From an uncultured bacterium (lineage in GTDB: Bacteria; Verrucomicrobiota; Kiritimatiellia; RFP12; UBA3636): a stretch of DNA of 64,000 bases. Made by a program: the position numbers and the translations under genes. The stretch covers positions 22,435 to 86,434 of the forward strand of contig CACWKU010000001.1 of assembly GCA_902761575.1 (NCBI GenBank), given 5' to 3'. The notes beneath the pieces are model-generated. The model saw only the letters and a list, made by a program, of their open reading frames with translations. It was not told the origin of the DNA and did no database searches. Below, one piece after another: positions 1 to 62,242 of the stretch (position 1 is its first letter; the number at the start of each line of letters is the position of its first letter).

Positions 1-2975
1 TAGGAGACGGCGTAGGACGTCGCGTTCGCCCCCTCGTCGTCGGTGCCCATCACGATCCCGGAGAGGGAGATCGTCGCCGTCGTGCCGTTCACCTCGACGG
101 CCGCGGATCCGATCGACGGATCGACGACCGTCGCCCCGCCCGCGCCGAGCTCGCGGACCTGGATGGCGTTGATGCAGGCGTTCCCGGAATACTCGATCGT
201 GAATTCTTCCGAGGCGCCGCTTGCCGTGAAGACGCCGACGAGCGAACTTCCGTATTCCCAGCCCGTTCCGCCGAACTTGACGGTCGTCGTGCCGTCCGGC
301 GCGGTGGCGGACTGCGTCGTATAAGTCTGGTTGAACGCAATGATCTGGACCAGGTACCGCTTTCCGCTCTCAAGGTTGTTCAACTGGATCTTCCGGCCTT
401 TGGGGTTCGCCCACCAGCAGTGTCCCAGCATATTCTTATAGTCGACATCGTCGATGCCGGACGGAGGAGTCGGGGTGGCGGATTGCGCCCCCGTCGTGGC
501 CTCCCATACGACGCAGTCCGCGTTGTTGATGAGGCCACTACTAGCAATGAACGCGACACCGTTGACCGTGTAGTTCCCAGCCGCGTAGGCATACTTAAGC
601 GTGCCGTCGGTTCGTATCGCGGCGCTCGTCGCGCCCAGCGCCTCGCCGGTCCAGCCCTCCTCGGCGGAACCGCCGCCACCGCCGCCCGACGTGCTGATGG
701 CGAACGAGGCGGTCTTGGACGCCGTCTTGCCCTTGTCGGTCGTGATCGTGACTTCGCAGGTGTAGGAACCGTCGGCGAGATCGGCGATCTGGAACGAGGC
801 CGAGGCGGCGGTCTGGTTCGCGAGCACCGCCACCGCGGCCCCGCCGTTCAGCGCGTAGGAGACCGCGTAGGACGTCGCGGCCGCGCCCTCGTCGTCCGTG
901 CCGAGCACGATGTCGGAGAGCGAGATCGTCGCGTTCGAGCTGACGACGCTGGCTGCCGCCGACCCGATCGACGGCGCGACGACCGGCGGCGGCGGCGTGC
1001 CGATCCGGAAGGAGACGGTCTTTTCCGCCGAGGTCTTGTTCTTGTCGGTCGTGATCGAGACCGCGCACGTATACTCGCCGTCGGCGAGGTTCGCGATGTC
1101 GAACGAAGCCGTCGCGGCGGCCTGGCCCGTGAGCGCCTGCACCGCGGCCGCGTCGCCCAGGCGATAGGAGACGGCGTAGGACGTCGCGTTCGTCCCCTCG
1201 TCGTCGGTGCCCATCACGACGCCGGCGAGCGAGATCGTCGCGGTCGAGCCGTTCGTCGAGACGGAGACGGAGCCGATCTTCGGCAGGACGACGACCGGCA
1301 CGCCGCTCTCGCCGAGGTCGCGGACCTGGATGCCGTTGATGCCGTAGTTGCCGTCGGACGTGATGGTGAACGTCTTGGTGGTCTCGGTGGCCGTGAAGGT
1401 TCCCGTCAGCGTGCCGCCGCAGGACCAGCCGTCGCCATAGACCTTGATGAAGTTCGGATCCCAGTACGACTCCTTGATCCAGACATGAGCCTTGCTGTCG
1501 CCGTTGTAGTTGCGGTAGCCGAAGATCTGGACGAGATAGCTGCGTCCGACCGTGAGGTTCTTGAGCGTCACCGCCTTGTCGCCCTGGTTCGCCCACCAGC
1601 AGCGGTCCAGGAGTTCATGGTAGGCACCGGAGACGCTGCTCGGGGCCGACGCGCCCGAGGTCTGGCTGTACGGCCAGGCGATATCGCCCGAGATGTTCGC
1701 GTTGTTGTTCCCGGCGGCCGCGAACGCAACGCCGTTGACCGTGCACGCCGCGGGCGCATACGCATACTCGAGCGTGCCGTCCGTGCGGATGGCGCTGTCG
1801 TCGGTCGGCAGCGGGCTCGCGTACCACGGCTCGGTCATCGTGAAGTCGAGCAGCGTCACGAGCTCCTTGTCGTCGGCCGTCGTGACGGTCACCTTGCAGG
1901 TATGGTCGCCGAGGGCGACGTTCGGGATCGCGAACGAAGCCCGGGTGCCCGTCTGGCCGGAAAGCGCGCGCGTCTTCGCCCCGCCGTCGAGCTCGTAGTC
2001 GATTGCGTAGGACGTGACGGCGTTCGCGTTCGCGTCCGTTCCGAGGTTGACGCCGAAGACCGTGATCGTCGCCGAGCCCGCGCCGTCCGCGTTCGGGGCG
2101 GCCTTGGCGTAGCCGACGGAAGGATCCGCCACGTGCGCCTGGCCGGCGGGAACCGAGAGATACTTGTGCATCGCGTTGGTCAGCGCAGGCTTCCAGAAAT
2201 CCGAATAGGTGAAGAATTCCGGATGGAGGCAGAGTCCCACGGCGTCGTAGCCGCCGTGGCCGCCCTCGCGGTAGCAGACCTTGTCGGGCATCGAATTCTG
2301 CTGGAGGTACTGGCTGCGGAGGTCCACCCAGAACACGCGCTTGTTGTCGACGAACTGGAGGATGTAGTCGTTGACTGCCTCGCTCATGGCCGTCACTTCG
2401 GCCGCTTCGAAGTACCTGCTGTCGAAGCTGTAGGGGAGGATCGGCATCAGGAGGATCTTCGCGTCCGGATGCTTCGTCGCCATCTCGCAGAGCATGAGCC
2501 GGATCGACTCGGCGACATCCTCGGCGCGATCGGCGTGCTCGTTGTGGTCGATGCACTTCTGGTGGCCGTTGTTGATGCCGACCATCAGCGTGAAGTACTT
2601 CGTGGTATAGCCGTCGAGCGCGCCGTTCCGGAGGCGCCACAGGAGGTTCTGGACGCGGTCGCTGCCGATGCCCATGTTGAACGCCGCGGCGTAGTTGAGG
2701 GGATCCCCGTCGAGGGCCAGGCTGGGATTGTTCCAGAAGTCGGTGATGGAGTCGCCAAACAGGACCACGTCGAAGTCCTTGCCCTGGCTGCCGCTGATGT
2801 CGGCGCTGAAGTGGTTCTTGTGGTAGTCGTCCGTGCGCTCCTTCGGCGTGCACGGCTCCGAGCTGGGGTCGGATCCCGGCACCTGGGCGCCGATCACGAT
2901 CGGATCGGCGGACGCGACAGTCCAGGCCATCGCAAGGATCGCCGCCGACAGGAAGTGGAGGAGCTTGAGTTTCAT
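1..2975 (-). CDS. Secreted multidomain SGNH/GDSL-type esterase, partial (3' end lies beyond the window start). Order: signal peptide, SGNH domain, Ig-like repeat, 'QVR' beta-sandwich module, 2 Ig-like repeats, Gly linker, second 'QVR' module, partial Ig-like repeat.
   Basis: The minus-strand frame is open from the ATG (2975-2973) to position 1. It is not in the supplied track because it has no stop in the window. Hand translation gives MKLKLLHFLSAAILAMAWTVASA (signal peptide), VVLFGDSITDFW and GINNG (SGNH blocks), ~95-aa repeats (..ATISLSGIVMGTDDEG..SYAVSY..), and modules ending INGIQVRDLGE and INAIQVRELGAGG. It is a paralog of 10964..12616 and 5249..10795. Confidence 0.85.
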   Translation of the reverse strand, partial: MKLKLLHFLSAAILAMAWTVASADPIVIGAQVPGSDPSSEPCTPKERTDDYHKNHFSADISGSQGKDFDVVLFGDSITDFWNNPSLALDGDPLNYAAAFNMGIGSDRVQNLLWRLRNGALDGYTTKYFTLMVGINNGHQKCIDHNEHADRAEDVAESIRLMLCEMATKHPDAKILLMPILPYSFDSRYFEAAEVTAMSEAVNDYILQFVDNKRVFWVDLRSQYLQQNSMPDKVCYREGGHGGYDAVGLCLHPEFFTYSDFWKPALTNAMHKYLSVPAGQAHVADPSVGYAKAAPNADGAGSATITVFGVNLGTDANANAVTSYAIDYELDGGAKTRALSGQTGTRASFAIPNVALGDHTCKVTVTTADDKELVTLLDFTMTEPWYASPLPTDDSAIRTDGTLEYAYAPAACTVNGVAFAAAGNNNANISGDIAWPYSQTSGASAPSSVSGAYHELLDRCWWANQGDKAVTLKNLTVGRSYLVQIFGYRNYNGDSKAHVWIKESYWDPNFIKVYGDGWSCGGTLTGTFTATETTKTFTITSDGNYGINGIQVRDLGESGVPVVVLPKIGSVSVSTNGSTATISLAGVVMGTDDEGTNATSYAVSYRLGDAAAVQALTGQAAATASFDIANLADGEYTCAVSITTDKNKTSAEKTVSFRIGTPPPPVVAPSIGSAAASVVSSNATISLSDIVLGTDDEGAAATSYAVSYALNGGAAVAVLANQTAASASFQIADLADGSYTCEVTITTDKGKTASKTASFAISTSGGGGGGSAEEGWTGEALGATSAAIRTDGTLKYAYAAGNYTVNGVAFIASSGLINNADCVVWEATTGAQSATPTPPSGIDDVDYKNMLGHCWWANPKGRKIQLNNLESGKRYLVQIIAFNQTYTTQSATAPDGTTTVKFGGTGWEYGSSLVGVFTASGASEEFTIEYSGNACINAIQVRELGAGGATVVDPSIGSAAVEVNGTTATISLSGIVMGTDDEGANATSYAVS

Positions 2976-3066
2976 GGTGAACCTCGTGTTTGGATGAGCT
3001 GTTGTTTTCCTTGCGTAGTGCCGGTCCGGGCTCCGAGATGGCGGAGGTGCCGTTCGACAAGGCGGA

Positions 3067-3122
3067 ATTCTAGGCGTTGCCCCGTTTCGAAGATAGGGAC
3101 ACGGAACGCGGAAACAAGTAAA
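3067..3122 (-). promoter_or_regulatory. Tripartite upstream cassette copy 1 (putative promoter of 1..2975)
   Basis: Sense strand: TTTACT (3122-3117), N18, CCCTAT (3098-3093), N20, TAGAAT (3072-3067). The ATG is 92 nt downstream. Confidence 0.55.
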
Positions 3123-3203
3123 TTTCATTCATTCGCCCGAATCCAACCCGCGGCGCGAAGCGAACGGGTTGCCTCGCGTTCGGCCCGGTCTCCGCGTTCC
3201 CTA

Positions 3204-5243
3204 TCAAACGCGTGCGAGGTCCTTCTCGCGCAGGAGGCGCCAGGCGGCGTCGCGGACGTCCGTGACGTCGTCGCGCAGCCTGCCGCAGCGGCACGGGCGG
3301 AGGCGCACGAGGTGCGTCGCGTGGCCGGGGACGGAGGCCTCGTAGACGCCCATGAAGACGCCCTCGTCCTCCTGCCGCCACACGTCGCGCACGAGCCACT
3401 TGCAGAGCAGCCCGGCCTTCTTGAGGTCGAAGGGCACCATCCGCTCGAAGCCGGACTTGTTGTAGAGGCCGGCGGCGATGGAGCCGTCGGCGAGCGGGCG
3501 CGCCCAGACCTCCCAGCCGTCGCCCTCGGCGATGCAGCCCGCGGCCTTGCCGAGCTCGTCCTGGTCGATCTCGATCACCTCGTCGTTCGTGAGGAGCGAG
3601 CGCGTGAACGGGGAGAGCTTCGTAAGATCGCAACCGATCATGAGCGGCGCCGCGAGGAGCGCCCACATCGAGACGTGCGTGTACTGCTCGTTCGGCGCGA
3701 GGCGCGACTCCTTGCCGTCGTTCCAGCAGACCGCGCCGACGCAGAGCATGTCCGGGTCGTTCCACGCGCCGGGGCCGGCGTAGAGGAAGAGGCGCTTCTG
3801 CTTCTCGATGGCGGCGGAGACCGAGGACCAGGTGTCGAAGACGTCGCCCGTCGTGCGCCAGCTCTGCCCGCCGACGCATCGCCCCCACGCGCTCACGTTC
3901 TCCATGCCGTACTGGCAGAGCGAGAGGACGATGTCCCGCTTCTGGTGGCGCAGCGCGGCGCCCATCACGAGGTAGGGGTACATCGCGCGGAGCACGTCGG
4001 AGCCGAACGCGACGTCGTCGTAGAAGCACCAGTCGTGCTTGAGGTAGTCGAAGCCCCACTCGGCGAACGTCTTCGCGTCGAGCTCCTCGTGCTGCCAGCT
4101 CCCGGCGGCGCGGCCGCAGGTGAACGGACCGGGGCTCGAGTAGATGCCGGCCTTGAGGCCCTTCGCGTGGATGTGGTCCGCGAGCGCCTTCATGTCGGGG
4201 AAGCGCCGGTTCGCGGCGATGCGGCCGTCGGCGTCGCGCAGGGGCCCGTCGAGGTCGGGGTCCTCCTTCGCGCGCTCGGGGATGTTCTGCCAGAAGTCGT
4301 CGACGTTCACGTAGGCGTAGCCGTGGTCCGCGAGGCCCGTCGCGACGAGCGCGTCCGCGGCGGTGCGGACCTTCTCGTCCGAGACGCTTCCGGCGAACGC
4401 GTTCCAGCTGCTCCAGCCCATCGCGGGCGTGAGGCAGATCGTCTCGCCGACCCGGATCGTGAACGGCTTCTCGTCGCTGCCGAGGCGGTTCGTCGCGCGG
4501 ATCGCGAGCGCGTAGTCGCCGGGCTCGTCGATGCGGCCGGAGAGGATCCGCGTGGCGGGGTCGTAGGAGAGGCCCGCGAGCTTCGGACTGTCGAGCCCGA
4601 GGCCGATCACCTCGACGCGGAGCGGCGCGGCGCCGGTCGCGGGCACGCGGAAGAGGATGGGGCGGCCGGGCCGCACGCCGTAGACGCACGGGCCGTTCAC
4701 GCGCGGCTCGGGGCGCTCCGGCGGCGTGAGGATCCCGAGCTGGCGCGACGTGCGCCGGACGTCGTTCGGGAGCACCTTGCCGTCGGCGTAGAGCAGCTTC
4801 GCCCCGCCCCAGACGGCGCCGACGCCCTTCCCCGCCCCGCCGTCCGCCGGCTCGGCGACGAGCGTGAACGTCTGGGCGCCGCTCACGTCCGCGCGCGCCT
4901 TGAGGTCGGCCGTGTCGCCCGCCGCCACGACTCCCGACCAGACTTCGCGGCCGTCGGCGAGGACCTTCAGGGCGACCGTGCCCGGCGCGCCGGCGGCGTC
5001 GATGCCGCAGGACGCCTCGAACGCGGCCGCGTCGCCGCCGACCGGGATCTCCACGGCGAACGGCACGGGCGTGCGCAGCCCGAAGAAGTGCTTCTTCGCG
5101 GGGGTCGAGAAGCGCTTCTCGATCGCCGCGCAGGCGACCTCGCAGACGCCCTCGCCGCGCACGACCCTCGTGACGTCGAACATCTCGGCGGGGACGTAGT
5201 GGACGGCGGCGGGCGCCGTTGTGTGTTTCGTGGAACGTTTCAT
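3204..5243 (-). CDS. GH27-family alpha-galactosidase with an N-terminal NPCBM-like beta-sandwich
   Basis: Track ORF 3204..6602 trimmed to the internal ATG at 5243 (MKRSTKHTT..), 5 nt after the stop of the upstream gene. The rest of the track ORF is R/G-rich nonsense in an alternate frame of 5249..10795. GH27-like motifs: TPAMGWSSWNAF, YVNVDDFWQ, FDYLKHDWCF. No obvious signal peptide. Confidence 0.9.
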   Translation of the reverse strand: MKRSTKHTTAPAAVHYVPAEMFDVTRVVRGEGVCEVACAAIEKRFSTPAKKHFFGLRTPVPFAVEIPVGGDAAAFEASCGIDAAGAPGTVALKVLADGREVWSGVVAAGDTADLKARADVSGAQTFTLVAEPADGGAGKGVGAVWGGAKLLYADGKVLPNDVRRTSRQLGILTPPERPEPRVNGPCVYGVRPGRPILFRVPATGAAPLRVEVIGLGLDSPKLAGLSYDPATRILSGRIDEPGDYALAIRATNRLGSDEKPFTIRVGETICLTPAMGWSSWNAFAGSVSDEKVRTAADALVATGLADHGYAYVNVDDFWQNIPERAKEDPDLDGPLRDADGRIAANRRFPDMKALADHIHAKGLKAGIYSSPGPFTCGRAAGSWQHEELDAKTFAEWGFDYLKHDWCFYDDVAFGSDVLRAMYPYLVMGAALRHQKRDIVLSLCQYGMENVSAWGRCVGGQSWRTTGDVFDTWSSVSAAIEKQKRLFLYAGPGAWNDPDMLCVGAVCWNDGKESRLAPNEQYTHVSMWALLAAPLMIGCDLTKLSPFTRSLLTNDEVIEIDQDELGKAAGCIAEGDGWEVWARPLADGSIAAGLYNKSGFERMVPFDLKKAGLLCKWLVRDVWRQEDEGVFMGVYEASVPGHATHLVRLRPCRCGRLRDDVTDVRDAAWRLLREKDLARV

Positions 5244-5248
5244 GGGAT

Positions 5249-8200
5249 CTAGCGCGTCAGGATCGCCCGGTAGAAATGGTGCTGGTCCGTGGCGGGCTGC
5301 CACGGGCCGGAAAGCGCGTCGGCGCCGAAGACCGTCACGGTCCCGTTGTAGGTCCCGGCGATGGCCGGAACCGTGCCCGGATCGATTCCCGCGAAGCGGA
5401 ACGCGGACTTCGCCTCGTCGAGGCCGGCCACGGCGCAGTTCAGAAGGTAGGCCGCCGAAAGCGCGTTGTCGGGGTTCCCGTCCGCGTCGAAGGACATCGC
5501 GTTCACGTCCGCGCCGCCGAACGGCACGCCGTTCGCGCGCGCCCACTTCGAGAGCCTGCGCAGCTCCGCCGTCGTGGTGCCGGCCTCCGCGAAGGCGCCG
5601 CCCGTGAGGCCGAGGTCCGCCGGCGAGGTGGCGTCCGTGATCGCCGTGTCGGGGTCCTCGGGCCAGTCCTGGAAGCCGCCGCCGCCGGCCTCGCCGAGGT
5701 CTCGGACCTGGAGGGCGGCGACGTAGCGCGCGGCGCCCGATCCGCCCATCTTGAACGTGACCACATGCGACGATGATTCCGCCGTGAACGAACCGTACAC
5801 CGTCGCGCCGGACGAGCCGTTCCCGTTCTGGATGCTGACGGAGGGCAGATCGCCGATCGTGATGTAGGCGTTTCCATACGAGTTGCGGGCCAGGATCTGC
5901 AGGAGATACGCATGGCCGGCCGTCAATCCCGAAAGCGTCAGATGGATCTCGCCCATGCCCGTATCCACGCCGAAGTCCCAGACCGTACCGAGGAGCGAGC
6001 TGCTCCCGGCGCTCACGTCCGCGCCGACGAAGGTCGGAGCAAAGGAAATGCTCGCCCCGGACAGGTTGGCGCCGGCCTGGAACGTCACGCCGCCCAGGGT
6101 CCGGTCCGTCGAGGCCCCGCGATAGGCGTAGAGAAGCGTGCCGTCCGTCCGGAGCATCGTTTCGTCCGACGCGCTCAGCGTCGCGACGGTCCAGCCCTCC
6201 ACGACGGAACCGCCGCCGCCCGACGTGTTGACGGCGAACGAGACGGACTTCGTGGCCGTCTTGCCCTTGTCGGTCGTGACCGTGACTGCGCAGGCGTAGG
6301 AGCCGTCGGCGAGGTTCTCGATGGAGAACGAGGCGGTGTCGTCGGTCTGGTTCGCGAGCGCCGCGACGGCGGTCCCGCCGTTCAGCGCGTAGGAGACGGA
6401 GTAGGACGACGCGGCCGCGCCCGCGTCGTCCGTTCCGAGCACGATGCCGGAGAGCGTGACCGTCGCGTTCGAGCCTGCAACATTGGCGGTCGCCGCGGCG
6501 ATCGACGGCGCGATGACCGGCGGCGGAGGCGTGCCGATCCGGAAGGAGACCGACTTCGCCGCCGAGGTCTTGCCCTTGTCGGTCGCGATCGTGACGACGC
6601 AAGTGTAGTCGCCGTCGGCGAGGTTCTCGATGGCGAACGACGCCGTCGCGCCGGTCTGGTTCTGCAGCGCCGTGACGGCGGTCCCGCCGTTCAGCGCGTA
6701 GGAGACGGAATAGGAAGTGGCGTCAGTCCCGGCATCGTCCGTCCCCATCACGATGCCGGAGAGAAAAAGCGACGCGGTGCTCCCGTCCGGAGTCGCGGTC
6801 ACGCTGCCGATCGACGGCTCGACGACCGTCGCCCCGCCGCCGCCGCCACCCCCGCCGCCGCCGTCGAGCTCGCGGACCTGGACGGCGTTGAACGGCATCT
6901 TGCCGCTACCGCCCTGATAGGTGATCGTCACGTCCTTCGTCGCGCCGACGGCCGTGAAGACGCCCGTGACGAGCGCGCCGTACTTCCCGCTCGCCTCGTT
7001 GTCGCCGTGGATGTGCACGGGGTCGCACCCGTTCGCGGAGACGGTCGTCGTGTTGTTCCAGTAGTTGTGCGCCAGGAACTGGACGAGGTAGATCTTCCCG
7101 CCTTCGAGATTCGAGAGCGTCAGCGTGACCGTGTGCGTGCCTGATCCGTCGCTGTCCCAGTACCAGCCGTTGCCGAGGGAGAGGCCGAGGTTGCCGCCGA
7201 CGCTTTCGTTCATGAAGTCGCCGGTGAAGCCGTCGATGTTGGGTGTGAAGGAGATCTTCGGAGGATTCTCCGAGGACTGGAGGTTCACGGACCGCTCGAA
7301 CGGGATTCCGTTGATGGTCCCGCCGTTGCAGACATAGCCGTAGACGAACGTGCCCTCCGTGCTGAATGCGGTGCCGCCCGCGTCCATGTATCCGGAGGTC
7401 CAGACATCGGAGACGGCGCTCGTGTTGACGTAGAAGACGACGGACTTCGTCTTCGCTCGCCCCTTGTCCGTCGTCATCGTGACCTCGCACGTGTGGTTGC
7501 CGTCCGCGAGGCCCTCGAGCGTGAACGAGCAGTCTTCCGACGTCTGGTCGGAGAGCGCCGTCACGGCCGCCGCGCCGTCGAGCTTGTAGGCGACGGAATA
7601 CTTCGTCGCGGGAACGGAGTTGGCGTCCGTGCCGAGGACGACGCCCGTGAGCGAGATCGTCGCGTTCGAACCGCTCGGCGCCGCGGCGAGCTCCGCGATG
7701 CGGGGATACTTCGGCCGGTTGTTCGTCGCGCGGTTCTGCGCGAACATCCAGACGAATCGGTGGTTCGGCGCGCCCGCCGTGACGTCGTCCTCCGTGGCGT
7801 AGCACGTCGTCCAGGCGTCGTGGCTGTTGTTCTCGAGCTTCTCGAAGATCACGTCCGATCCGAGCGCCCGGAGCGCCGTGACGATGCCCTCGGTCTGCTC
7901 GACGGGAATGGTCGGGTCTCCGCGGTTGTGCACGGCCAGGACCGGGACGTGCGCGATGTCGGCCGCGCAGGCGGGATCGCCGCCGCCGCAGCACGGCATC
8001 GCCGCGGCGAAGAAGTCGGGCCGGCGGCAGATCGCGTCCCAGGTCCCGTGCCCGCCCATCGAGAGGCCGGTGACGTAGATGCGGTCGGCGTCGACGTCCG
8101 CCATCGCGGCGTAGGCGTCGAGAAGGTCGAACACCGCCTGGAGCGCCGCGGACGGCTTGTCCTGGAACGTGCAGGTGGTCGAGTTCATGGAGAACTCCGC

Positions 8201-10795
8201 CCACTTGACGTCGTTCGGGCACTGGGGGACGAGAAGCTTGTAGCCGCTTGGGCCGCCCGCGCCGTCGAGGTAGCGCTGAATGTTCGACATCTCGTTGATC
8301 GTGAACGAATTGTCGACGCCGCACTGGCCGTATCCGTGAAGGAACACGACGACGGGAACCTTGCCGCCGTTCGGATCGGCCTTCGCCGCGACGCGGTAGG
8401 GGAGCTGAAGCTTGTTGGACGCGATGAAGGTCTTCTTGACGAATTCGCCGGTCAGGTCGTCGCCGCCGCCACCACCGCCGCCGCCGCCACCGCCGAGCTC
8501 GCGGAGCTGAATGGCCTTGACGAGGCATTTGCTGCCGGAGGTGGCGAACGTGACGGTCACGGTCTCCTGCGCGCCCGTCGCCTCGAACACGCGCGAAATG
8601 ACGGCGCCGCACTTGTAGTCGTTCTGCTTGGTGGCCTCGAACGGAACGAGATCGCCGGCGGAGAGCGTCGTCGAGGAATTGTTCCAGTGGTTGGCGGCGA
8701 GAATCTGGACCAGGTACTTCTTCCCGGCCGTGAGCCCCTGGAGGGTGAAGGCAAGGTCCAGCGAGGAGTCGCTCTTCTCCCACACCCAGCCGCCGTTGAA
8801 CACCGGGTTGTTCTCCGTCCAGCCCGCGCCGGCGTACGACGAGGGCGAGACCGTCGCCTGGTCCGAGCCCGGGAAGCCCGCGGAGAACGAGACGCCGTTG
8901 ACAGTGTGCCCGGTGAAGCCGCGCGCGAAGACCTGCGTGCCGTCGCTGCGGAACGCCGAGCCCGTCGCGTCCATCGGCGCGACCTTCCAGCCGACGGCGT
9001 CGGCCTGGGAATCGATCTGGAACTTGACGCGCTTCACGGCGGACATCACGACGCCGTCCGACGAAACCCAGACCGCGCAGGTGTGCCAGCCGTCGGCGAG
9101 GTCCGCGAGCTCGAACGAGGCCGAGGAGCCCGTCTCCGCCGCGGGAAGCGCCGTCTCGGCGCCCGCGTCGAGCTTGTAGGAGACCGCGAAGGACGCAGCG
9201 GCCGCGCCGCTCGCGTCCGTGCCCTTCGTCACGTTCGAAAGCGAGATCGTCGCCGACGTGCCGCTGACCTGCGCGGCGGCGGAGCCGATCGTCGGAAGCA
9301 CGACGGGCGAGGCGCCGGCCGTCGCCATCGCGCTGGCGATCGCGGGCGCGAGGATCTCCTCGTAGGCCTTCGTGGTCAGGTGCAGGAACTGGTCGGGATA
9401 GTCGCCGTTGCCCTGGAGGTACATCTCGCCGCGGTACGTCCCGTCGGCGTTCAGGAACTGGCTGCGGACGTCGACGAGGATCACGCGCTCTCCGTCCGCG
9501 AACGTCCGGATGATCTCGTTCGCCGCCTCGTTGTTGGCGTAGTGCGCGGCGCCCTTCGCGCCGTTCTGCGCGTTCGTGTAGCCGTAGGGGATGATCGGCA
9601 TCAGGAGGACCTTCGACTCGGGATGCTTCGCGAGGATGAGGTCGAGCACGGCGCGCACGCCCGCGGCGATGTCCGCGGGATCCTCGCTCGGATTCTTCCC
9701 GATCGTGTTGTTCGTGCCGATCAGCAGGTTGAAGAACTTCGTCGTGTAGCCGTCGATGCAGCCGCTCTCGAGGCGCCACAGCAGGTTCTCCACGAAGTCG
9801 CCGGTCCGGCCGAGGTTCAGGACGTTGGCGGCGAGTCCGTTCATGGACGAGGCGCTGTTCCCCTCCATCCACTTCTGAGTGAGGGAGTCGCCGAGGAGGA
9901 CGAGATCGAAGCTCCGGCCGTTTTCGCCGATGAGCTTCAGGTCGTCCTCGAACTTCCGCCAGAAGGCGTCCTGCAGATCGGCGTTGACCGCCGTCGGGAA
10001 CGTCGCGATGCGGTCGATCTCGGGACGCGCCGTCGCCACGAGGTCGGCGGGCATCGCGGAGCCGCCCGCCGCGGCGGCGACGTAGGGCGCGACCGCCTGG
10101 GCCCAGACCTCGTAGCCGGCCGCGTTCAGCGTGACGCGGTCGGCATTGAAGAGCGAGGTCTTCAGCGTGTGGTGGTCGTTCTCGAGGAAGAGGTCCGACA
10201 TGTCCACCCAGGCGCATCCCTTCTTCTGCGCGTACGCGCGAACGTCGATGTTCAGGCGGTCGTTGCGCGGACGCACGGGATCGGACTCGTCGAGCCCGCG
10301 CGGAAGCACCGCCTGCACGACGACCTTGGACGCGCCAACGCTTGCGACGAGGTCGTCGATGATTTCGCGCACGCCCAGGTACGTCTTCCCCTCCGGCTCC
10401 TCCTTCTCGGTGTAGATCGCGGCGTTGTTGCCGCCGACCATCAGGAAGACGACCTTGGGGCTGCCGAGCTCGCCGTTCCGGATGCGCCAGAGGACGTTCT
10501 CCGTGCAGTCGCCGGCGAAGCCGAGGTTGAACATTGTCCTGTCGCCGGTGAAGTAGGTCGCGAGCGCGCCCGCGCCCGTCGTCTCCCAGTCCTGCGTCAG
10601 CTCGTCGCCGAGGAAGACGATGTCCTTCCTGATGGAACTGTCGGCCACCGCCGCGACCTTCTCGGCGTGGCGCGCCGTCCACCAGGCGTCGAGCCGCGAG
10701 GCGGGGGTGTTCGCGCGGATGGACACCGCGGGTGCGTTCACAGCGGCCATCGCGAGGATCGCCGCGGACAGGAACGTGAAGGAGTGGGGTTTCAT
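5249..10795 (-). CDS. Giant secreted multi-esterase (1848 aa): 2 SGNH domains, an alpha/beta (CE1/PHB-depolymerase-like) esterase, 4 Ig-like repeats, 3 'QVR' modules, poly-Gly linkers and a conserved C-terminal tail
   Basis: Track ORF 5249..10888 trimmed to the ATG at 10795 (MKPHSFTFLSAAILAMAAVNAPA signal peptide). Motifs: IVFLGDELTQDW and LVLLGDSLTQKW/GTNN (SGNH); VVVFLHGYGQCG and GLSMGGHGTW (Ser-hydrolase elbow). Gly runs of 9-11 residues. Modules end KAIQLRELG, NAVQVRELD and ALQVRDLGE. The tail ends HHFYRAILTR. Confidence 0.9.
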   Translation of the reverse strand: MKPHSFTFLSAAILAMAAVNAPAVSIRANTPASRLDAWWTARHAEKVAAVADSSIRKDIVFLGDELTQDWETTGAGALATYFTGDRTMFNLGFAGDCTENVLWRIRNGELGSPKVVFLMVGGNNAAIYTEKEEPEGKTYLGVREIIDDLVASVGASKVVVQAVLPRGLDESDPVRPRNDRLNIDVRAYAQKKGCAWVDMSDLFLENDHHTLKTSLFNADRVTLNAAGYEVWAQAVAPYVAAAAGGSAMPADLVATARPEIDRIATFPTAVNADLQDAFWRKFEDDLKLIGENGRSFDLVLLGDSLTQKWMEGNSASSMNGLAANVLNLGRTGDFVENLLWRLESGCIDGYTTKFFNLLIGTNNTIGKNPSEDPADIAAGVRAVLDLILAKHPESKVLLMPIIPYGYTNAQNGAKGAAHYANNEAANEIIRTFADGERVILVDVRSQFLNADGTYRGEMYLQGNGDYPDQFLHLTTKAYEEILAPAIASAMATAGASPVVLPTIGSAAAQVSGTSATISLSNVTKGTDASGAAAASFAVSYKLDAGAETALPAAETGSSASFELADLADGWHTCAVWVSSDGVVMSAVKRVKFQIDSQADAVGWKVAPMDATGSAFRSDGTQVFARGFTGHTVNGVSFSAGFPGSDQATVSPSSYAGAGWTENNPVFNGGWVWEKSDSSLDLAFTLQGLTAGKKYLVQILAANHWNNSSTTLSAGDLVPFEATKQNDYKCGAVISRVFEATGAQETVTVTFATSGSKCLVKAIQLRELGGGGGGGGGGGDDLTGEFVKKTFIASNKLQLPYRVAAKADPNGGKVPVVVFLHGYGQCGVDNSFTINEMSNIQRYLDGAGGPSGYKLLVPQCPNDVKWAEFSMNSTTCTFQDKPSAALQAVFDLLDAYAAMADVDADRIYVTGLSMGGHGTWDAICRRPDFFAAAMPCCGGGDPACAADIAHVPVLAVHNRGDPTIPVEQTEGIVTALRALGSDVIFEKLENNSHDAWTTCYATEDDVTAGAPNHRFVWMFAQNRATNNRPKYPRIAELAAAPSGSNATISLTGVVLGTDANSVPATKYSVAYKLDGAAAVTALSDQTSEDCSFTLEGLADGNHTCEVTMTTDKGRAKTKSVVFYVNTSAVSDVWTSGYMDAGGTAFSTEGTFVYGYVCNGGTINGIPFERSVNLQSSENPPKISFTPNIDGFTGDFMNESVGGNLGLSLGNGWYWDSDGSGTHTVTLTLSNLEGGKIYLVQFLAHNYWNNTTTVSANGCDPVHIHGDNEASGKYGALVTGVFTAVGATKDVTITYQGGSGKMPFNAVQVRELDGGGGGGGGGGATVVEPSIGSVTATPDGSTASLFLSGIVMGTDDAGTDATSYSVSYALNGGTAVTALQNQTGATASFAIENLADGDYTCVVTIATDKGKTSAAKSVSFRIGTPPPPVIAPSIAAATANVAGSNATVTLSGIVLGTDDAGAAASSYSVSYALNGGTAVAALANQTDDTASFSIENLADGSYACAVTVTTDKGKTATKSVSFAVNTSGGGGSVVEGWTVATLSASDETMLRTDGTLLYAYRGASTDRTLGGVTFQAGANLSGASISFAPTFVGADVSAGSSSLLGTVWDFGVDTGMGEIHLTLSGLTAGHAYLLQILARNSYGNAYITIGDLPSVSIQNGNGSSGATVYGSFTAESSSHVVTFKMGGSGAARYVAALQVRDLGEAGGGGFQDWPEDPDTAITDATSPADLGLTGGAFAEAGTTTAELRRLSKWARANGVPFGGADVNAMSFDADGNPDNALSAAYLLNCAVAGLDEAKSAFRFAGIDPGTVPAIAGTYNGTVTVFGADALSGPWQPATDQHHFYRAILTR

Positions 10796-10883
10796 CGTGA
10801 GCCTCGTGCTTTGGTTGCGTGCCCTTTCCGCACGCGTGCCGAATCCGGCCACGCGATGGCGATGGCTCCGTTCGACACCGCGA

Positions 10884-10940
10884 ATCATACCGCCGCGCCC
10901 GCCCGTTCGGCTAGGTAGATTCGCGGCGGATATCAGTAAA
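10884..10940 (-). promoter_or_regulatory. Tripartite upstream cassette copy 2 (putative promoter of 5249..10795 and the GH27 gene)
   Basis: TTTACT (10940-10935), N18, ACCTAG (10916-10911), N21, TATGAT (10889-10884). Confidence 0.55.
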
Positions 10941-10963
10941 GAGACGGCTATACGCGCACTCGC

Positions 10964-12616
10964 CTAGCGCGTCAGGTCGCGGACCTGGATGGCGTTGAGG
11001 GCGTAGTTGTTGTCGGCGCAGACGGTGATCGTCTTCGTGGGCGCGGTCGCCGTGAAGGTTCCCGTGAGCACGCCGCCGCGGGCCCAGCCGTCGCCGCAGA
11101 CCTTGATGTAGTTCGTGTCCCGGAACGACTCCTTGATCCAGACGTGCGACTTCTCGTAGCCGTTGAAGTCGCGGAAGCCGACGATCTGGACGAGGTAGCG
11201 GTGGCCGGGCACGAGGTTCCGGAGCGTCACCTCCTTCTCGCCCGCGTTCGCCCACCAGCAGTGGGCCAGCAGGTCGCGGAGCCCGCCGCCCACGACGTCC
11301 GCCGGGACCTGCGAGCCGGAGGTCGGCCCGTAGGGCCAGGCGATGTTCGCGTCGTCGATGGCGCCGTTCGCGGCGGCGAAGGGAACGGAATGGGCCGTGT
11401 AGGTGCCGCTCCCGACGGCGTACGCGCAGACGAGCGTCCCGTCCGTCCGAATCGCGCCGCCGTCGGCGGAGAGCGCCTCGCCCCGCCAGTCCTCGGTCAT
11501 CGTGAAGTCGACCGAGGTCGAGAGCTCCCTGCCGTCCGCGGTCGTGACGGTCACCTTGCAGGTGTGCGCGCCGAGCGCGACGTCCGGGATCGTGAACGAG
11601 TTGCGCGTCTTCGTCTGGTTCGAGAGGACCGGCTTCCTCGGCCCGCCGTCGAGCTCGTAGGCGACCGAGTAGGACGCGACGGGAACGGCCTTCGCGTCCG
11701 TCCCGAGGAAGATGCCGCGGACCGTGATCGTCGCGGTCCCCGGGCCGTCCGCGTTCGGCGCGGCCGACGCGTAGCCGAGCGAGGGGTCCGCCACGTGGGG
11801 CCGGCCCGCGGGGATCGCGCGGTACTTCTGCATCGCGGCCGTCAGGGCGGGCTTCCAGATGGCGGGATAGGCGGAGTCGGCCGGATGCAGGCAGTGCCCC
11901 TTCGAATCGTAGACGCCGGCCTTGTAGCAGCTCTCCTTGCAGGAGGCGTCGGGGTTGAGGAACGCGCCGCGCAGGTCCACCCAGAACACGCGACTGTTGT
12001 CGACGAACCCCAGGATGATGTCGTTGACGTCCTCGTTCACGTTGCGGACGTCGAGCGCCGCGTAGTACCGGCTCTCGAACCCGTAGGGCAGGATCGGCAT
12101 CAGGAGGATCTTCGACTCGGGGTGCTTCGCCACGATCTCGCGCAGGATGAGCCGGATCGACTCGGCGACGTCCTCCGCGCGGTCGCAGGGGTCGTCGTGG
12201 TTGTCGACGTGCTTCTGGTAGCCGTTGTTCACGCCGATCATCAGCGTGAAGTACTCCGCCTGGTAGCCGTCGAGCGCGCCGTTCCGGACGCGCCAGAGCA
12301 GGTTCTGCGCGCGGTCGCTGCCGATGCCCATGTTGATCGTCCTGCCGGCATCCCCGTCGAAGCTCAGGTTCGAGTAGACCCAGAAGTCGGTGATGGAGTC
12401 GCCGAAGAGGACGGCGTCGAACGACTTGCCCTGGCTCTGGCTGCGGTCGTCTTCGAAGTGGCGAACGCCGTACTCGTCCGTGCGACGCGCCGGCGTGCAC
12501 GGCTCCGAATCCGGGTTTGAGCCCGGCACGGGGACGTCGAGCGGTCCGCCGAACGCGGCGGTCGCGGCGACCGCGAGGATCGCCGAGGAGAGGAGCGGGA
12601 GGGCGTGGAGCTTCAT
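10964..12616 (-). CDS. Secreted SGNH/GDSL esterase with one Ig-like repeat and one 'QVR' module (550 aa)
   Basis: Track ORF. Signal peptide MKLHALPLLSSAILAVAATAAFG. Motifs AVLFGDSITDFW and GVNNG. Ends ..NYALNAIQVRDLTR. Collinear with the N-terminal 550 aa of the gene at 1..2975. Confidence 0.9.
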   Translation of the reverse strand: MKLHALPLLSSAILAVAATAAFGGPLDVPVPGSNPDSEPCTPARRTDEYGVRHFEDDRSQSQGKSFDAVLFGDSITDFWVYSNLSFDGDAGRTINMGIGSDRAQNLLWRVRNGALDGYQAEYFTLMIGVNNGYQKHVDNHDDPCDRAEDVAESIRLILREIVAKHPESKILLMPILPYGFESRYYAALDVRNVNEDVNDIILGFVDNSRVFWVDLRGAFLNPDASCKESCYKAGVYDSKGHCLHPADSAYPAIWKPALTAAMQKYRAIPAGRPHVADPSLGYASAAPNADGPGTATITVRGIFLGTDAKAVPVASYSVAYELDGGPRKPVLSNQTKTRNSFTIPDVALGAHTCKVTVTTADGRELSTSVDFTMTEDWRGEALSADGGAIRTDGTLVCAYAVGSGTYTAHSVPFAAANGAIDDANIAWPYGPTSGSQVPADVVGGGLRDLLAHCWWANAGEKEVTLRNLVPGHRYLVQIVGFRDFNGYEKSHVWIKESFRDTNYIKVCGDGWARGGVLTGTFTATAPTKTITVCADNNYALNAIQVRDLTR

Positions 12617-12690
12617 CGTGTGCCTCGTGTTGCTTGGGTTGTCGCCGCCGGGTCCGCCGCGATGGCGGGGACGCCGTCCGACAAGCCGGC

Positions 12691-12747
12691 ATTCTACCCG
12701 TACCGGCCTTTCGGCGGAAAGGGAGTCGCCCGGCGATATCGGGTAAA
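12691..12747 (-). promoter_or_regulatory. Tripartite upstream cassette copy 3 (putative promoter of 10964..12616)
   Basis: TTTACC (12747-12742), N18, CCCTTT (12723-12718), N21, TAGAAT (12696-12691). Confidence 0.55.
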
Positions 12748-12803
12748 TTTCGGCCAGTCCGCCGAAGCGGGCGCGGCGCGACGCCTCGGTTCGGGCGCCC
12801 CGG

Positions 12804-14384
12804 TCAGCGGGTCAGGATCGCCTGGAAGAAGCGGTGCTCGGCCGTGGCGGGCGCCCACGCGCCGCCGAGGTCGTCCGCGCCGAGGACCGTCACGCTGCCG
12901 TTGAGGCCGGAGGCGTCGATGGACGGCACCGTCCCGGGCGTGAACTCCGTGAAGCGGAACGCGGCCTTCCTCGCGTCCAGGTCGCCGACGCCGCAGCCGA
13001 GCAGGTACGCCGTCGTGAGATCGGTGTCCGGGTTGCCCGATTCGTCGAAGGCCATCGCGTTCACGTCCGCGCCGGCGTAGCGCACGCCGTTCGCGCTCGC
13101 CCACTTCGAGAGCCTGCGCAGCTCCGCCGTCGTGGTGGCGGACTCCGCGAAGCCGCCCGCGACGAGGCCCAGGTCGATCGGCCGCATCGCGTCCGTGATC
13201 TGCGCGTCGGGATCCTCGGGCCAGTCGAGAAACGGCGGAACGGTCGGACCGCCCTCGTCGGGAAGGCCCGTCAGCGTCAGCGCGCAGAGGCGGGGGACGG
13301 TCACCGCCCTAAAGGTCATGCCGTAGACCGTCTTCTCCTTGGTCTCGCCGCCGTCCGAGACGAGGAAGACGGCGCGAGTGCCGTCACCGAGGATCGGTCC
13401 GAGCGCGATGCCCTCGTAGACGATGATCTGCTCAAGCCCCCCGCCCCGAAACTCCAGCAGGGCGCTTCCCTTCGAGACCGCCTCGTAAGCGTCCGTCTCC
13501 GTCAGCGCGGCAATCTCCGAGACTTCCGTCGCCGCGGCAAGGGCGGCTGTCGTGATCCGGTAGACGCGACAGCGCCCGAAGGTCGTGGTGCTCACCTCGC
13601 GCTCGAGGGTCAACAGCGACCCGTCCGGCAGCGCGCACAGTCCGGAGAGGCCGCACTGGGAGAACTGGGCGAGCTGCGAGATGAGGACCGACGAGCACGG
13701 GTCGCACAGGTAGGCCCATTCGCCGGCCGACTCCCAGTCAGCCTCCGCCGACTCGCGCGTGAAGCGCGTCAGGCGTACGGCGGTGCTCACGGTGCTGTTG
13801 CCGCTCGAGGAATCGCCGTCGCACGTGAGCGCCTGCTCGTTGGCCGTCCACATCGTGAGCCCATCCGGCGAAACCGTGAGCGCCTCGAGCGAAAGGTTGG
13901 ACCGTTTGTAGTTGCGCTGGACGGCGGGAACCGGGGCGGTCCGCCCCGTGGCGACGCCGTCGAGGCCGTATTCGGCGATCGTCGGGGAGGCTTCGTCGCT
14001 GATCCACAGCGCTCCGGTCTGCGGGTCGAGGGCGATCCCCTCCGCGTCGGTGAGCGTCCCGGGCGTGAACTCCGCGCCGATCGACTGGGCGGCGATGGCG
14101 CCGGAGGCGGGATTGATCGCGAACGAAACCGGATAGACCTTCGACTTGTTGTCGCCCGCGTGGTCGCGCAGCACGTAGAAGACGCCGGCTCGCCCGGACC
14201 AGGCGATGCCGCCGCATCCGTCCTTCTCGAAGGAATACTCGGCGACCTTCTCGATCGAAAGCGAGTAGTCGGAGTCCGGACCGGCGACGATCTCTCGGCT
14301 CGCGGCGTGCGCGAGGGAGGCGCCCAGGACGATGGCGAGCGCGACGGCGGGAATGGCATGCATGGCGGGACTTGGGCTGGACAT
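12804..14384 (-). CDS. Secreted phytase-like/esterase-like beta-propeller protein with a conserved C-terminal tail (526 aa)
   Basis: Track ORF. Signal peptide ..AIPAVALAIVLGASLAHAAS. Propeller-style repeats (DAEGIALDPQTGALWISDE, LEALTVSPDGLTMWTANE, LSGLCALPDGSLLTLERE) resemble the 'esterase-like activity of phytase' family as I recall it. The last ~140 aa are homologous to the tail of 5249..10795 (..TTTAELRRLSKWA.ANGV..FFQAILTR). An alternative start exists at 14363. Confidence 0.75.
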   Translation of the reverse strand: MSSPSPAMHAIPAVALAIVLGASLAHAASREIVAGPDSDYSLSIEKVAEYSFEKDGCGGIAWSGRAGVFYVLRDHAGDNKSKVYPVSFAINPASGAIAAQSIGAEFTPGTLTDAEGIALDPQTGALWISDEASPTIAEYGLDGVATGRTAPVPAVQRNYKRSNLSLEALTVSPDGLTMWTANEQALTCDGDSSSGNSTVSTAVRLTRFTRESAEADWESAGEWAYLCDPCSSVLISQLAQFSQCGLSGLCALPDGSLLTLEREVSTTTFGRCRVYRITTAALAAATEVSEIAALTETDAYEAVSKGSALLEFRGGGLEQIIVYEGIALGPILGDGTRAVFLVSDGGETKEKTVYGMTFRAVTVPRLCALTLTGLPDEGGPTVPPFLDWPEDPDAQITDAMRPIDLGLVAGGFAESATTTAELRRLSKWASANGVRYAGADVNAMAFDESGNPDTDLTTAYLLGCGVGDLDARKAAFRFTEFTPGTVPSIDASGLNGSVTVLGADDLGGAWAPATAEHRFFQAILTR

Positions 14385-35737: not shown

Positions 35738-36388
35738 TTACTTGACGGTAATGACCGCCGGCTTCCCCGCCGGTTCGTCCGACGGAAGCTCGCGCACCTG
35801 GATGGCGTTGATCAAAGCCTGGCCGCTGTACGAGATCGTGAACTCCTCCGTCGTGGCTTCGGCGGTGAACTGGCAGATCAGCGAACCGCCGTATTCCCAT
35901 CCGGTTCCGGCGAACTTGGCAACCGTCGTTCGGTCCGGCGCGGTCGCCGACTGCGTCGTGTAGTCGTTGCGGAAGGCGACCATCTGGACCAGATACCGCT
36001 TCCCGGATTCCAGATTCTTCAACGCGATCGGCCGGTCCTTGCCGTTTGCCCACCAGCCATTCGACAGCAGATCCTTGTAATCGCCCGACTCGGTGTCGGA
36101 GGGAGGCGACGAAACGGCGTTGCCGGCTCCGCCCGAGGCTTCCCAGACGACGCAGTCCGCCGTATTGACGATTTTGTCGCCGACACCGGCGAACGAAACG
36201 CCGTTGACCGTGTAGTTTCCGCGGGCGTAGGCGTACTTGAGCGTTCCGTCCGTGCGGATCGACGTGCTGCTCGCCGTCAGTGGCGTAGCAGACCACGTGA
36301 CGTCCGTTGCCGCCCCGGCGGGGGCGGCGACGAGCGCGGCGGCGGCCGCGAGGGCGAGGGCGGCGGTTTTCCTGACGATGCGATTCAT
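35738..36388 (-). CDS. Free-standing secreted 'QVR' module protein (216 aa)
   Basis: C-terminal part of track ORF 35738..40231, trimmed to the ATG at 36388 (MNRIVRKTAALALAAAAALVAAPAGA signal peptide). The whole mature protein is one copy of the recurrent module (..SSTSIRTDGTLKYAYARGNYTVNGVSF..GKRYLVQMVAF..LINAIQVRELPS). Confidence 0.85.
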   Translation of the reverse strand: MNRIVRKTAALALAAAAALVAAPAGAATDVTWSATPLTASSTSIRTDGTLKYAYARGNYTVNGVSFAGVGDKIVNTADCVVWEASGGAGNAVSSPPSDTESGDYKDLLSNGWWANGKDRPIALKNLESGKRYLVQMVAFRNDYTTQSATAPDRTTVAKFAGTGWEYGGSLICQFTAEATTEEFTISYSGQALINAIQVRELPSDEPAGKPAVITVK

Positions 36389-39927: not shown

Positions 39928-39966
39928 GGTCGTTTTCCCCTGGATGGTTCCGGTCGGACTTGCGGG

Positions 39967-46467: not shown

Positions 46468-46497
46468 CGGGTGCGTTCCATCGGTTGTCTGCGGAAC

Positions 46498-46554
46498 ATC
46501 CTACCACACCGTCCCGAGGGGCGGCTAGGTACGCCGGGGCCTGAAAGCGGTAAA
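46498..46554 (-). promoter_or_regulatory. Tripartite upstream cassette copy 9 (putative promoter of 43645..46467)
   Basis: TTTACC (46554-46549), N18, ACCTAG (46530-46525), N21, TAGGAT (46503-46498). Confidence 0.55.
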
Positions 46555-54626: not shown

Positions 54627-54706
54627 GGTCTGGATGGTCTGGATGGTCGGGATGGTCGGGATGGTCAGAGGGTCAGAGGGTCGGGATGGTCCTGATGGTC
54701 GGGAGG
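54627..54706 (-). repeat. Tandem 8-9-nt GACCATCS-type repeats filling the whole fcl-ugd intergenic region and abutting the ugd ATG
   Basis: Sense strand: TGA cctcc CGACCATCA GGACCATCC CGACCCTCT GACCCTCT GACCATCC CGACCATCC CGACCATCC AGACCATCC AGACC ATG. Confidence 0.9.
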
Positions 54707-55648: not shown

Positions 55649-55688
55649 GGTCTGGATGGTCCGATGGTCCGGATGGTCCGATGGTCAG
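55649..55688 (-). repeat. Tandem GACCATCS repeats abutting the fcl ATG
   Basis: Sense strand: CT GACCATCG GACCATCCG GACCATCG GACCATCCA GACC ATG (a 17-nt unit, twice). Confidence 0.9.
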
Positions 55689-55824
55689 AAGTGGCGCGCG
55701 GCATCATGAATTCGACATGGCGCGTTGCGATGGGCGCGGAGTCTAGCAGAGGGGTCGGCGGGAACGGAAGGGACGGAGTTGACCGTTTCTAGCACGATTT
55801 TGACTTGCTTTCCGGGCGGGCCGA

Positions 55825-62205: not shown

Positions 62206-62242
62206 ACCATCGGACCATCCCGACCATCGGACCATCCCGACC
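62206..62242 (+). repeat. Tandem GACCATCS repeats filling the rdgB-galE intergenic region and abutting the galE ATG
   Basis: TAG ACCATCG GACCATCCC GACCATCG GACCATCCC GACC ATG (a 17-nt unit, twice). Confidence 0.9.

Follow-up and report, generated by a model that had tools for sequence, protein, structure and literature searches.

The DNA analysed here (the window) is a stretch of 64,000 nucleotides (nt) of contig CACWKU010000001.1, assembly GCA_902761575.1, from an uncultured bacterium of the Kiritimatiellia, and the subject is a block encoding two immunoglobulin-like (Ig) domains that is shared by two of its genes, g1 and g3, predicted to specify multidomain esterases. The GC content of the window is 64 to 75%, and coding frames stand out by a GC content at third codon positions (GC3) of ∼0.9. 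Five genes, g1 to g5, lie on the minus strand within the first 14 kb. Judged from the predicted products, the window is a polysaccharide-degradation locus, since the remainder encodes, besides a second melibiase and a beta-helix protein, further esterases (BD-FAE) and other large proteins that look secreted. A rumen metagenome scaffold from ENA (L001, STEW19) is 99.9% identical to the window. The related metagenome-assembled genomes (MAGs), from cattle and goat gut, carry the labels Kiritimatiellae, Verrucomicrobia, or Lentisphaerae; among the relatives, L015 is RUG13889, L017 is RUG673, L018 is a contig of ERZ4902999, L003 is ERZ914821, and W denotes the window.

Hidden Markov models (HMMs) built from the window's own repeats detected the Ig domain 10 times and a second module of ∼175 residues, here called X, 8 times, on the minus strand throughout and alternating with catalytic domains. 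The strand of g1 and g3 was set by GC3 frame analysis together with gene calls on a 99.9%-identical contig. The two genes and the parts of them that matter for the shared block, including its best-conserved tract (the core), are as follows.

g1, 3..2975, minus strand: multidomain SGNH esterase, putatively secreted, with its C terminus past the left end of the window; GC3 0.89
g3, 5249..10795, minus strand: multidomain esterase of 1,848 amino acids (aa), GC3 0.93, with an identical 1,848-aa gene call on L001 and L002
Core tract in g1, 630..1124, minus strand: C-terminal half of Ig1b, Pro hinge, Ig1c, Gly linker, and the first ∼15 codons of X2
Core tract in g3, 6170..6658, minus strand: C-terminal half of Ig3c, hinge, Ig3d, Gly linker, and the start of X3
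Ig1b, 993..1292, minus strand: first Ig of block A of g1; Ig HMM E value 1.6e-42
Hinge ..GTPPPPVVAPS.., about 984-995, minus strand: between Ig1b and Ig1c
Ig1c, 687..983, minus strand: second Ig of block A of g1; Ig HMM E value 9.9e-44
Poly-Gly linker STSGGGGGGS (translation), 663..686, minus strand: between Ig1c and X2
Ig1d, 3..128, minus strand: partial, first Ig of block B of g1, the rest of which lies beyond the window; Ig HMM E value 1.6e-14
Ig3c, 6527..6826, minus strand: first Ig of the g3 pair; Ig HMM E value 1e-43
Ig3d, 6221..6517, minus strand: second Ig of the g3 pair, placed by module maps
X1 of g1, 1308..1835, minus strand
X2 of g1, 141..662, minus strand: module resembling a carbohydrate-binding module (CBM), unrelated in DNA to X3 of g3; within the window it is most similar to g9, a stand-alone X gene
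X2 of g3, 6860..7411, minus strand: borders the shared block on its N-terminal side; 32% aa identity to X1 of g1
X3 of g3, 5690..6202, minus strand: CBM-like module that behaves as a cassette

Inside the window, the module order of g1 is SGNH-Ig-X-Ig-Ig-X-Ig(partial). The full gene could be read from L007, which is 96.5% identical, as SGNH-Ig-X-[Ig-Ig]-X-[Ig-Ig]-X-Ig-X-Ig-X-Ig-Cterm, with a length of ∼2,143 aa (2,130 aa in the gene call on L001). The order in g3 is SGNH-SGNH-Ig-X-ABH(DLH-like)-Ig-X-Ig-Ig-X-Cterm, where ABH stands for alpha/beta-hydrolase. The motifs FGDSIT and LGDELT/LGDSLT are present in the translations, and the Pfam scores for Lipase_GDSL_2 were 48.8 bits for g1, 111.9 for the two domains of g3, and 57.5 for g4, against a cutoff of 32.9; the DLH domain of g3 scored 29.9 bits. 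By these sequence matches, g1, g3, and g4 are SGNH/GDSL hydrolases and predicted esterases. The initial annotation had stated that the catalytic domains around the shared block differ, and they do, with one SGNH domain in g1 and two plus the DLH-like hydrolase in g3.

The Ig repeat of ∼99 residues was recognized by Pfam as Big_13 (PF19077) in two stretches of g3 (48.4 bits, cutoff 27), one of which, at residues 1461-1524, is Ig3d. The score for g1 was below the cutoff (22.2 bits), although Ig1c and Ig3d, with 71% aa identity, are clearly homologous. An AlphaFold2 model of Ig3d (pLDDT 97.4) is a seven-strand sandwich whose best Foldseek matches were FnIII and PKD domains, with TM scores of 0.60 to 0.68. 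As modeled, the repeat belongs to the general Ig-like/FnIII class, an assignment that stands above the subfamily level. The X module was predicted to have a CBM- or malectin-like fold, including the beta-jelly-roll of CBMs. Membership in a curated CBM or Pfam family was not found: no Pfam match was obtained at E ≤ 0.1, no CBM family database having been searched, and a PDB sequence search returned just a local FnIII-like motif, L.NL.PG.YLV.

In a BLASTN comparison of the window with itself, 581-1306 and 6117-6840 were aligned over 731 columns with 79.3% identity (E value 7e-180), which bears out the initial annotation, where a likeness at about three of four positions had been estimated by eye. 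The identical runs quoted there were also recovered, CCGATCCGGAAGGAGAC at 1000 and 6534 and GCCGTTCAGCGCGTAGGAGAC at 843, 6377, and 6686, and the encoded motifs ..SFRIGTPPPPV(V/I)APSI.. and poly-Gly were seen in the translations as described. Long exact matches between g1 and g3 all had one constant offset of 5534, and the longest was 25 nt. A similar match had been proposed between the first 170 nt of the window and 6700-6890. It exists (1-244 against 6699-6975) but at only 68%, and the best partner of 1-186 lies within the same gene, at 1165-1353, with 82.5% identity.

The likeness is not evenly spread over the block. A two-breakpoint likelihood scan delimited the core at 630-1124 and 6170-6658 (489 nt), where identity is 85% and mismatch 14.7%; beyond the maximum-likelihood (ML) change points, in gene orientation, mismatch is 35% upstream and 55% downstream. 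The upstream border falls inside an Ig domain, with the N-terminal parts of Ig1b and Ig3c 68% identical in nt (18/33 identical codons) and their C-terminal parts 86% identical (28/32). Ig1c and Ig3d are 84.5% identical in nt, with an identical-codon fraction of 0.914, and the X modules that flank the block have ∼31% protein identity between g1 and g3. Raised identity bounded by diverged flanks and extending, as shown next, to synonymous sites is as expected of a gene conversion or ectopic recombination tract.

Because similarity at this GC3 could arise from codon bias, the expected number of identical codons was computed from the codon usage of the genes themselves. The core (g1 aa 665-830) has 116 conserved residues, and 104 of them are encoded by the same codon in both genes, where codon usage predicts 68.6 (P<5e-5). 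The 5' part (g1 aa 611-664), with 16 of 30, matches the predicted 15.9, and the two parts differed significantly (Fisher P=2.6e-5). Identical codons in the X flanks were at or below expectation. The initial annotation had named a similarity confined to the protein level, with saturated synonymous sites, as the outcome that would speak against sharing of DNA; that is what was found in the 5' third of the block (∼1135-1306), which is alike at the protein level only, and clearly not in the core of ∼490 bp. The core is shared at the DNA level beyond codon bias, as module exchange or gene conversion would leave it. Since its synonymous sites are unsaturated and its flanks diverged, a segment appears to have passed between a gene of g1 type and one of g3 type.

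The core was also set against the other paralogous pairs of the window, which involve the remaining genes of the cluster.

g2, 3204..5243, minus strand: GH27-type alpha-galactosidase with an NPCBM domain
g4, 10964..12616, minus strand: predicted SGNH/GDSL esterase
g5, 12807..14384, minus strand: phytase-like

A paralogue of g4 (10974-12696) is contained in the N-terminal half of g1 (SGNH-Ig-X1, 1315-3072; 73.6%), and X2 of g1 aligns with g9 (148-632 against 35787-36274) at 71.9%, with 64% aa identity. A C-terminal domain of ∼142 aa (..FQDWPEDPD..HHFYRAILTR), which had no Pfam match, is common to g3 (5252-5677) and g5 (12807-13235), both on the minus strand, at 78% nt identity. Two other C-terminal domains occur in relatives as alternatives, one of the g1 type and one with ..CFYQIVVK, and these may be sorting or anchoring domains. 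By ML, synonymous divergence (dS) in the core was ∼0.45 and nonsynonymous divergence (dN) 0.146. The other pairs gave dS values of 1.5 (g1/g4), 1.07 (C-terminal domains of g3 and g5), 1.76 (X2 of g1/g9), and 1.03 (Ig1b/Ig1c); taken together, paralogous pairs other than the core had dS values of 1.0 to 1.9 or were unresolvable, so that the core was the lowest of all. The ML values of 18 to 31 obtained for the X flanks are meaningless, and those pairs were treated as saturated.

These data bear on one alternative, that the Ig-Ig block was inherited vertically without any exchange and owes its likeness in DNA to purifying selection and GC3 bias, with the X flanks evolving faster. Codon bias alone does yield much identity, since distant Ig pairs at a GC3 of ∼0.93 have identical codons at 55 to 77% of conserved residues, and the 5' third of the block lies at that baseline. 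The identical-codon excess of the core largely refutes this explanation, and its dS, the lowest of any paralogous pair in the window, argues the same way. Differential constraint fails as an explanation because X modules are better conserved between orthologues than the Ig-Ig block is: X1 of g1 retains 90 to 93% aa identity across species, whereas the adjacent block has just 71 to 77% nt identity. Two g3 orthologues, moreover, do not have Ig3d. Vertical inheritance alone is therefore very unlikely.

The two orthologues in question, g3 of L008 and of RUG673, have a single Ig at this place in module maps, and the alignment of the L008 gene has a gap at g3 aa 1455-1555; g3 of RUG13889 does contain Ig3d. 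W.g3 and L008.g3 are 95 to 100% identical over the first 4.2 kb, and identity falls from 97 to 100% to ∼85% at g3 aa ∼1405-1411, the point where the likeness to g1 begins. Phylogeny of the Ig repeats was examined in a neighbor-joining (NJ) tree of 64 repeats (99 codons, 200 bootstraps), in which the labels W.g3.Ig4 and W.g1.Ig3 correspond to Ig3d and Ig1c, respectively. The Ig3c orthologues of L008, RUG13889, and RUG673 formed one clade (99.5% bootstrap). Ig3d grouped with its RUG13889 orthologue in 200/200 bootstraps, and this pair was nested in a clade otherwise composed of g1-type Igs alone (74.5%). Tract and flanks were thus discordant with moderate support, Ig3d falling among g1-type Igs and Ig3c, X2, and ABH following the g3 orthologues. 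The entry of a g1-type segment into g3 is therefore moderately supported.

The exchange had been described as recent in the initial annotation, where a test of the repeats for concerted evolution had also been proposed. Neither recency nor concerted evolution was supported by comparison with the orthologues. Between W and L007 the orthologue dS is 0.17, against ∼0.45 in the core, and no exact run in the block exceeds 25 nt. In L007, blocks A and B of g1 are 86% identical in nt with a dS of 0.57, an age similar to that of the core. In the Ig tree, the within-genome pair of Ig1c and Ig3d was recovered in 0/200 bootstraps, and W.g3.Ig4 is 92.9% identical to RUG13889.g3.Ig4 but only 84.5% to W.g1.Ig3. 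At first and second codon positions, Ig3d has 8 differences to the RUG13889 orthologue and 26 to 30 to g1-type copies; at third positions the corresponding numbers are 13 and 12 to 16. Since its third positions are equally far from the orthologue and from the g1-type copies, the event would be about as old as the split from RUG13889. The dating is rough, but the exchange is old; dN/dS since then is ∼0.3 to 0.8, depending on the method, whereas orthologues show values of ∼0.07 to 0.2.

Homogenization of the block by ongoing or recent gene conversion between g1 and g3 in this genome would predict a different picture. Third positions alone do not discriminate, as paralogue distances there are no larger than those between Ig3d orthologues, and some patchiness is seen below the domain level among beta-type Igs: W.g3.Ig4 and L7.g1.Ig5 are 89% identical in the N-terminal part and 76% in the C-terminal part. 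The core, however, differs at 15% of positions, the g1/g3 pair of RUG13889 itself is equally diverged (84.2%), and within-strain g1 and g3 copies were never closer to each other than orthologues in the two genomes compared. Because Ig1c and Ig3d were never recovered together and the Ig3d orthologues always were, conversion between g1 and g3 is not ongoing, and this explanation is most improbable.

Exchange as such, by contrast, was found throughout the family. Sliding-window comparisons and module maps of g1, g3, and their relatives indicated a mosaic structure of both genes, in which the closest relative changes from segment to segment. The number and order of modules vary among orthologues, with one, two, or three Ig-Ig blocks in g1, depending on the MAG, and one or two Igs in g3, and the breakpoints lie at module borders: the X1/Ig junction, the motif at the end of X, the Pro hinge, and the Gly linker. 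Compared with g1 of RUG673, the switch falls at the X1/Ig junction, and compared with that of RUG13889, at the X-module end ..NAVQVRDLGE. W.g3 and RUG13889.g3 are the same through Ig3d, the Gly linker, and SVVEGWTVA, have only 38% aa identity in X3, and are the same again from QVRDLGEAGGGG. Whole X modules have been replaced between these two sequences at window positions 5690-6202 and 8489-8998, X1 following the same pattern as X3, with flanks that are 93 to 100% identical and junctions at a conserved GW start and QVR(D/E)LG end. X3 of W.g3 is instead 90% identical in aa to X3 of RUG673.g1. The proposal of cassette exchange among paralogous enzymes was partly supported, in the form of repeated recombination at Ig, hinge, and linker borders; its recency was not.

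Larger rearrangements were also seen. L018 is 96.9% identical to the window (974-4428) from g2 to the Pro hinge at ∼974 and then continues in a g3-like Ig-X-Cterm tail at 77%. It has a different gene context upstream, and several of its genes appear frameshifted. Among database relatives, P0028 is a fusion of a g4-like part with g3, P0032 is a fusion of Ig-X with ABH, and P0030 has the order SGNH-Ig-X-Ig-X with a g3-type C-terminal domain. In RUG673, the frame of the g3 orthologue (open reading frame 6785-13912) continues into a phytase-like domain (..X-X-PHY), which suggests either a fusion of g3 with g5 or same-frame read-through in a stop-to-stop open reading frame call.

With such mosaicism, the tract might derive from a diverged allele of a different Kiritimatiellae lineage, taken into g3 (or g1) by homologous recombination. 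Segments of g1 and g3 do have their closest relatives in different MAGs, W.g3 resembling L008 in the first 4.2 kb and RUG13889 in the C-terminal domain, and L018 departs from the window just beyond the hinge. Import of an allele still needs the original transfer from a g1-type to a g3-type gene, because Ig3d nests among g1-type Igs; it alters where the event took place and not what it was. As a separate account of the block it is unlikely.

The initial annotation had also warned that the repeats are an assembly hazard. This hazard looks low. A collapse of short reads over the repeats is unlikely because the copies differ at 15 to 21% of positions and share no exact run above 25 nt, and a chimeric assembly is unlikely because independent assemblies (L001, L002, L015, and L007) agree in module order. 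g3 was reproduced in L001 and L002, which come from different samples (99.8 to 99.9%), and in RUG13889 at 92%; g1, including its second Ig-Ig block, was reproduced in L007, an assembly of a separate study. The reading frame is nevertheless lost inside the repeat region in two database proteins that stem from other assemblies, P0005 (in the second Ig-Ig block) and P0023 (at the hinge), and gene calls there therefore deserve care. The contig of P0023 is L018, which was considered as a misjoin of g1 and g3 and rejected, its downstream part being just 77% identical to g3 of the window; the contig presents a coherent architecture of another kind, with a frameshift. An artifact of assembly is accordingly an extremely remote explanation of the shared block.

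The block is thus probably an Ig-coding segment shared through old recombination within a shuffled family of modular esterases. It encodes two tandem Ig-like spacers of ∼99 residues (FnIII/PKD-type, Big_13-like) with the Pro hinge between them and the Gly linker after them, and forms part of a scaffold, CBM-like X module-Ig(-Ig), that is repeated across a cluster of putatively secreted carbohydrate esterases (g1, g3, g4, g6, and g9). The likeness in DNA probably arose by unequal or illegitimate homologous recombination, or by gene conversion, between Ig-coding repeats. A segment of ∼490 bp, which starts midway in the first Ig, takes in the hinge and the whole second Ig, and ends in the first codons of the next X module, would then have moved between a g1-type and a g3-type gene. 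The most likely direction would be from g1-type to g3, which would thereby have gained its second Ig. The copies have since diverged separately, with many amino acid changes, after an event roughly as old as the RUG13889 split. The DNA of Ig domains, hinges, and Gly linkers, together with the conserved X-module ends, appears to serve as junctions for shifts in Ig number, replacement of X, and swaps of gene halves, with a combinatorial set of esterases as the outcome and possible effects on substrate targeting or reach.

Several points weigh against this interpretation. Exchange between paralogues within the genome and import of a diverged allele of a different lineage are indistinguishable in these data. 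The dS estimates are noisy, resting on 99 to 164 codons at a GC3 of ∼0.93; NG86 and ML values differed 2- to 3-fold, and YN00 was unusable for most pairs. Direction and donor are weakly resolved; the NJ tree, built from 99 codons, gave the broad Ig clade a bootstrap of 74.5% and the narrower clade one of 37.5%. The equal third-position distances mean that the event may be as young as the RUG13889 split. Finally, the single Ig of L008 has the beta-type 3-nt deletion, and an ancestral Ig-Ig pair that collapsed in L008 is an alternative to a gain in g3. When that Ig was examined as a deletion hybrid of Ig3c and Ig3d, its C-terminal part was 82 to 86% identical to several Igs and about equally distant from them.

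Outside the shared block, some other features of the window were recorded. Three unrelated genes have tandem repeats of an 8- to 9-nt unit, GACCATCNN (with GGA inside), in 4 to 8 copies immediately 5' of the ATG, on the coding strand, at 54627-54700 (minus), 55653-55690 (minus), and 62205-62242 (plus). The pattern ACCATCN{2,4}ACCATC had 10 matches in the window, against 0 expected, and these repeats may be a leader or translational-control element. Two big genes on the minus strand without Pfam match, at 36601-39966 (∼1,100 aa) and 43648-46500 (∼950 aa), are paralogous in several segments at 65 to 72% nt identity. Between g4 and the next gene, L003 (11654-11945) has a gap of 293 nt where the window, at ∼10740, has 169 nt, and the identity of L003 to the window switches from 98.1 to 100% at ∼10685-10739. 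No tRNA genes were found within the window.

The exchange of X modules allows a further and more tentative reading, in which they constitute an undescribed CBM family and are swapped as specificity cassettes among rumen Kiritimatiellae esterases and strains, with Ig, hinge, and linker DNA and the ends of X acting as homology arms. This is possible, though doubtful. A search of the literature on Kiritimatiellae rumen esterases and CBM domain shuffling found nothing specific to this esterase family.

Parts of this arrangement resemble known systems. LigA and LigB of Leptospira share an N-terminal part that is essentially identical. As in LigA, LigB, and LigC, tandem Ig-like coding repeats are shared here at the DNA level by paralogous genes for surface proteins, and the genes are mosaic. 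Unlike the LigA/LigB segment, the tract here is internal, ∼490 bp long, and 85% identical, and near-identity of the LigA/LigB kind was not seen (79% overall, 85% in the core, longest exact run 25 nt). The Lig domains are Big_2 adhesins of a pathogen, whereas here a gut commensal has Big_13-like spacers in its carbohydrate esterases. A review lists ligA, ligB, and ligC among genes with recombination-derived mosaicism (PMC10534446).

Domain shuffling is the accepted origin of the architectures of multimodular carbohydrate-active enzymes (CAZymes). Such proteins, like cellulosomal enzymes and like g1 and g3, combine catalytic domains, carbohydrate-binding modules, and beta-sandwich spacers with Pro- or Gly-rich linkers. 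Compared with typical CAZymes, the X-Ig(-Ig) alternation is of unusual regularity, and one protein can have as many as 5 X and 8 Ig; in addition, X has no Pfam match, and replacement of a cassette was seen directly between alleles with flanks 93 to 100% identical. The multidomain xylanase-esterases of Caldicellulosiruptor are an example of multimodular CAZymes with CBMs and FnIII/Ig-like spacers (PMC7151638).

In the Gram-positive surface proteins Rib/alpha-C, SasG/Aap, and Esp, as in the esterases, the number of tandem Ig-like repeats varies between strains. The variation arises there by intragenic recombination, and unequal recombination between repeats is the likely mechanism in the esterases. 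The repeats of those proteins are near-identical in DNA and vary on epidemiological timescales, whereas the repeats here, at 74 to 88% identity, reflect old events. When receptor-binding cassettes are exchanged in the tail fibers and tailspikes of phages, a variable binding module is likewise swapped between conserved homology-arm flanks, as in the sharply delimited swaps of X3 and X1. Tail fibers are neither bacterial-chromosomal nor enzymatic, and the analogy is one of mechanism alone, with no claim of membership.

Since the shuffling of modular CAZymes and the mosaicism of Ig-repeat surface proteins are already established, the case is a clear but fairly ordinary one of domain shuffling, and the block shared by g1 and g3 overturns nothing established. 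It has practical consequences for the family, in that orthology-based annotation of these esterase genes will mislead, because segments of one gene have different closest relatives, and gene calls from assemblies are easily disturbed by frameshifts and fusions. X is a candidate for a new CBM family. If X modules are exchanged as specificity cassettes, the shared Ig-Ig block would be the constant framework of a selected combinatorial diversification for substrate targeting and not an incidental duplicate. The Kiritimatiellae are abundant and poorly characterized degraders of polysaccharides in the rumen, and at this locus the assembly and reassortment of their esterases can be followed at nucleotide resolution.

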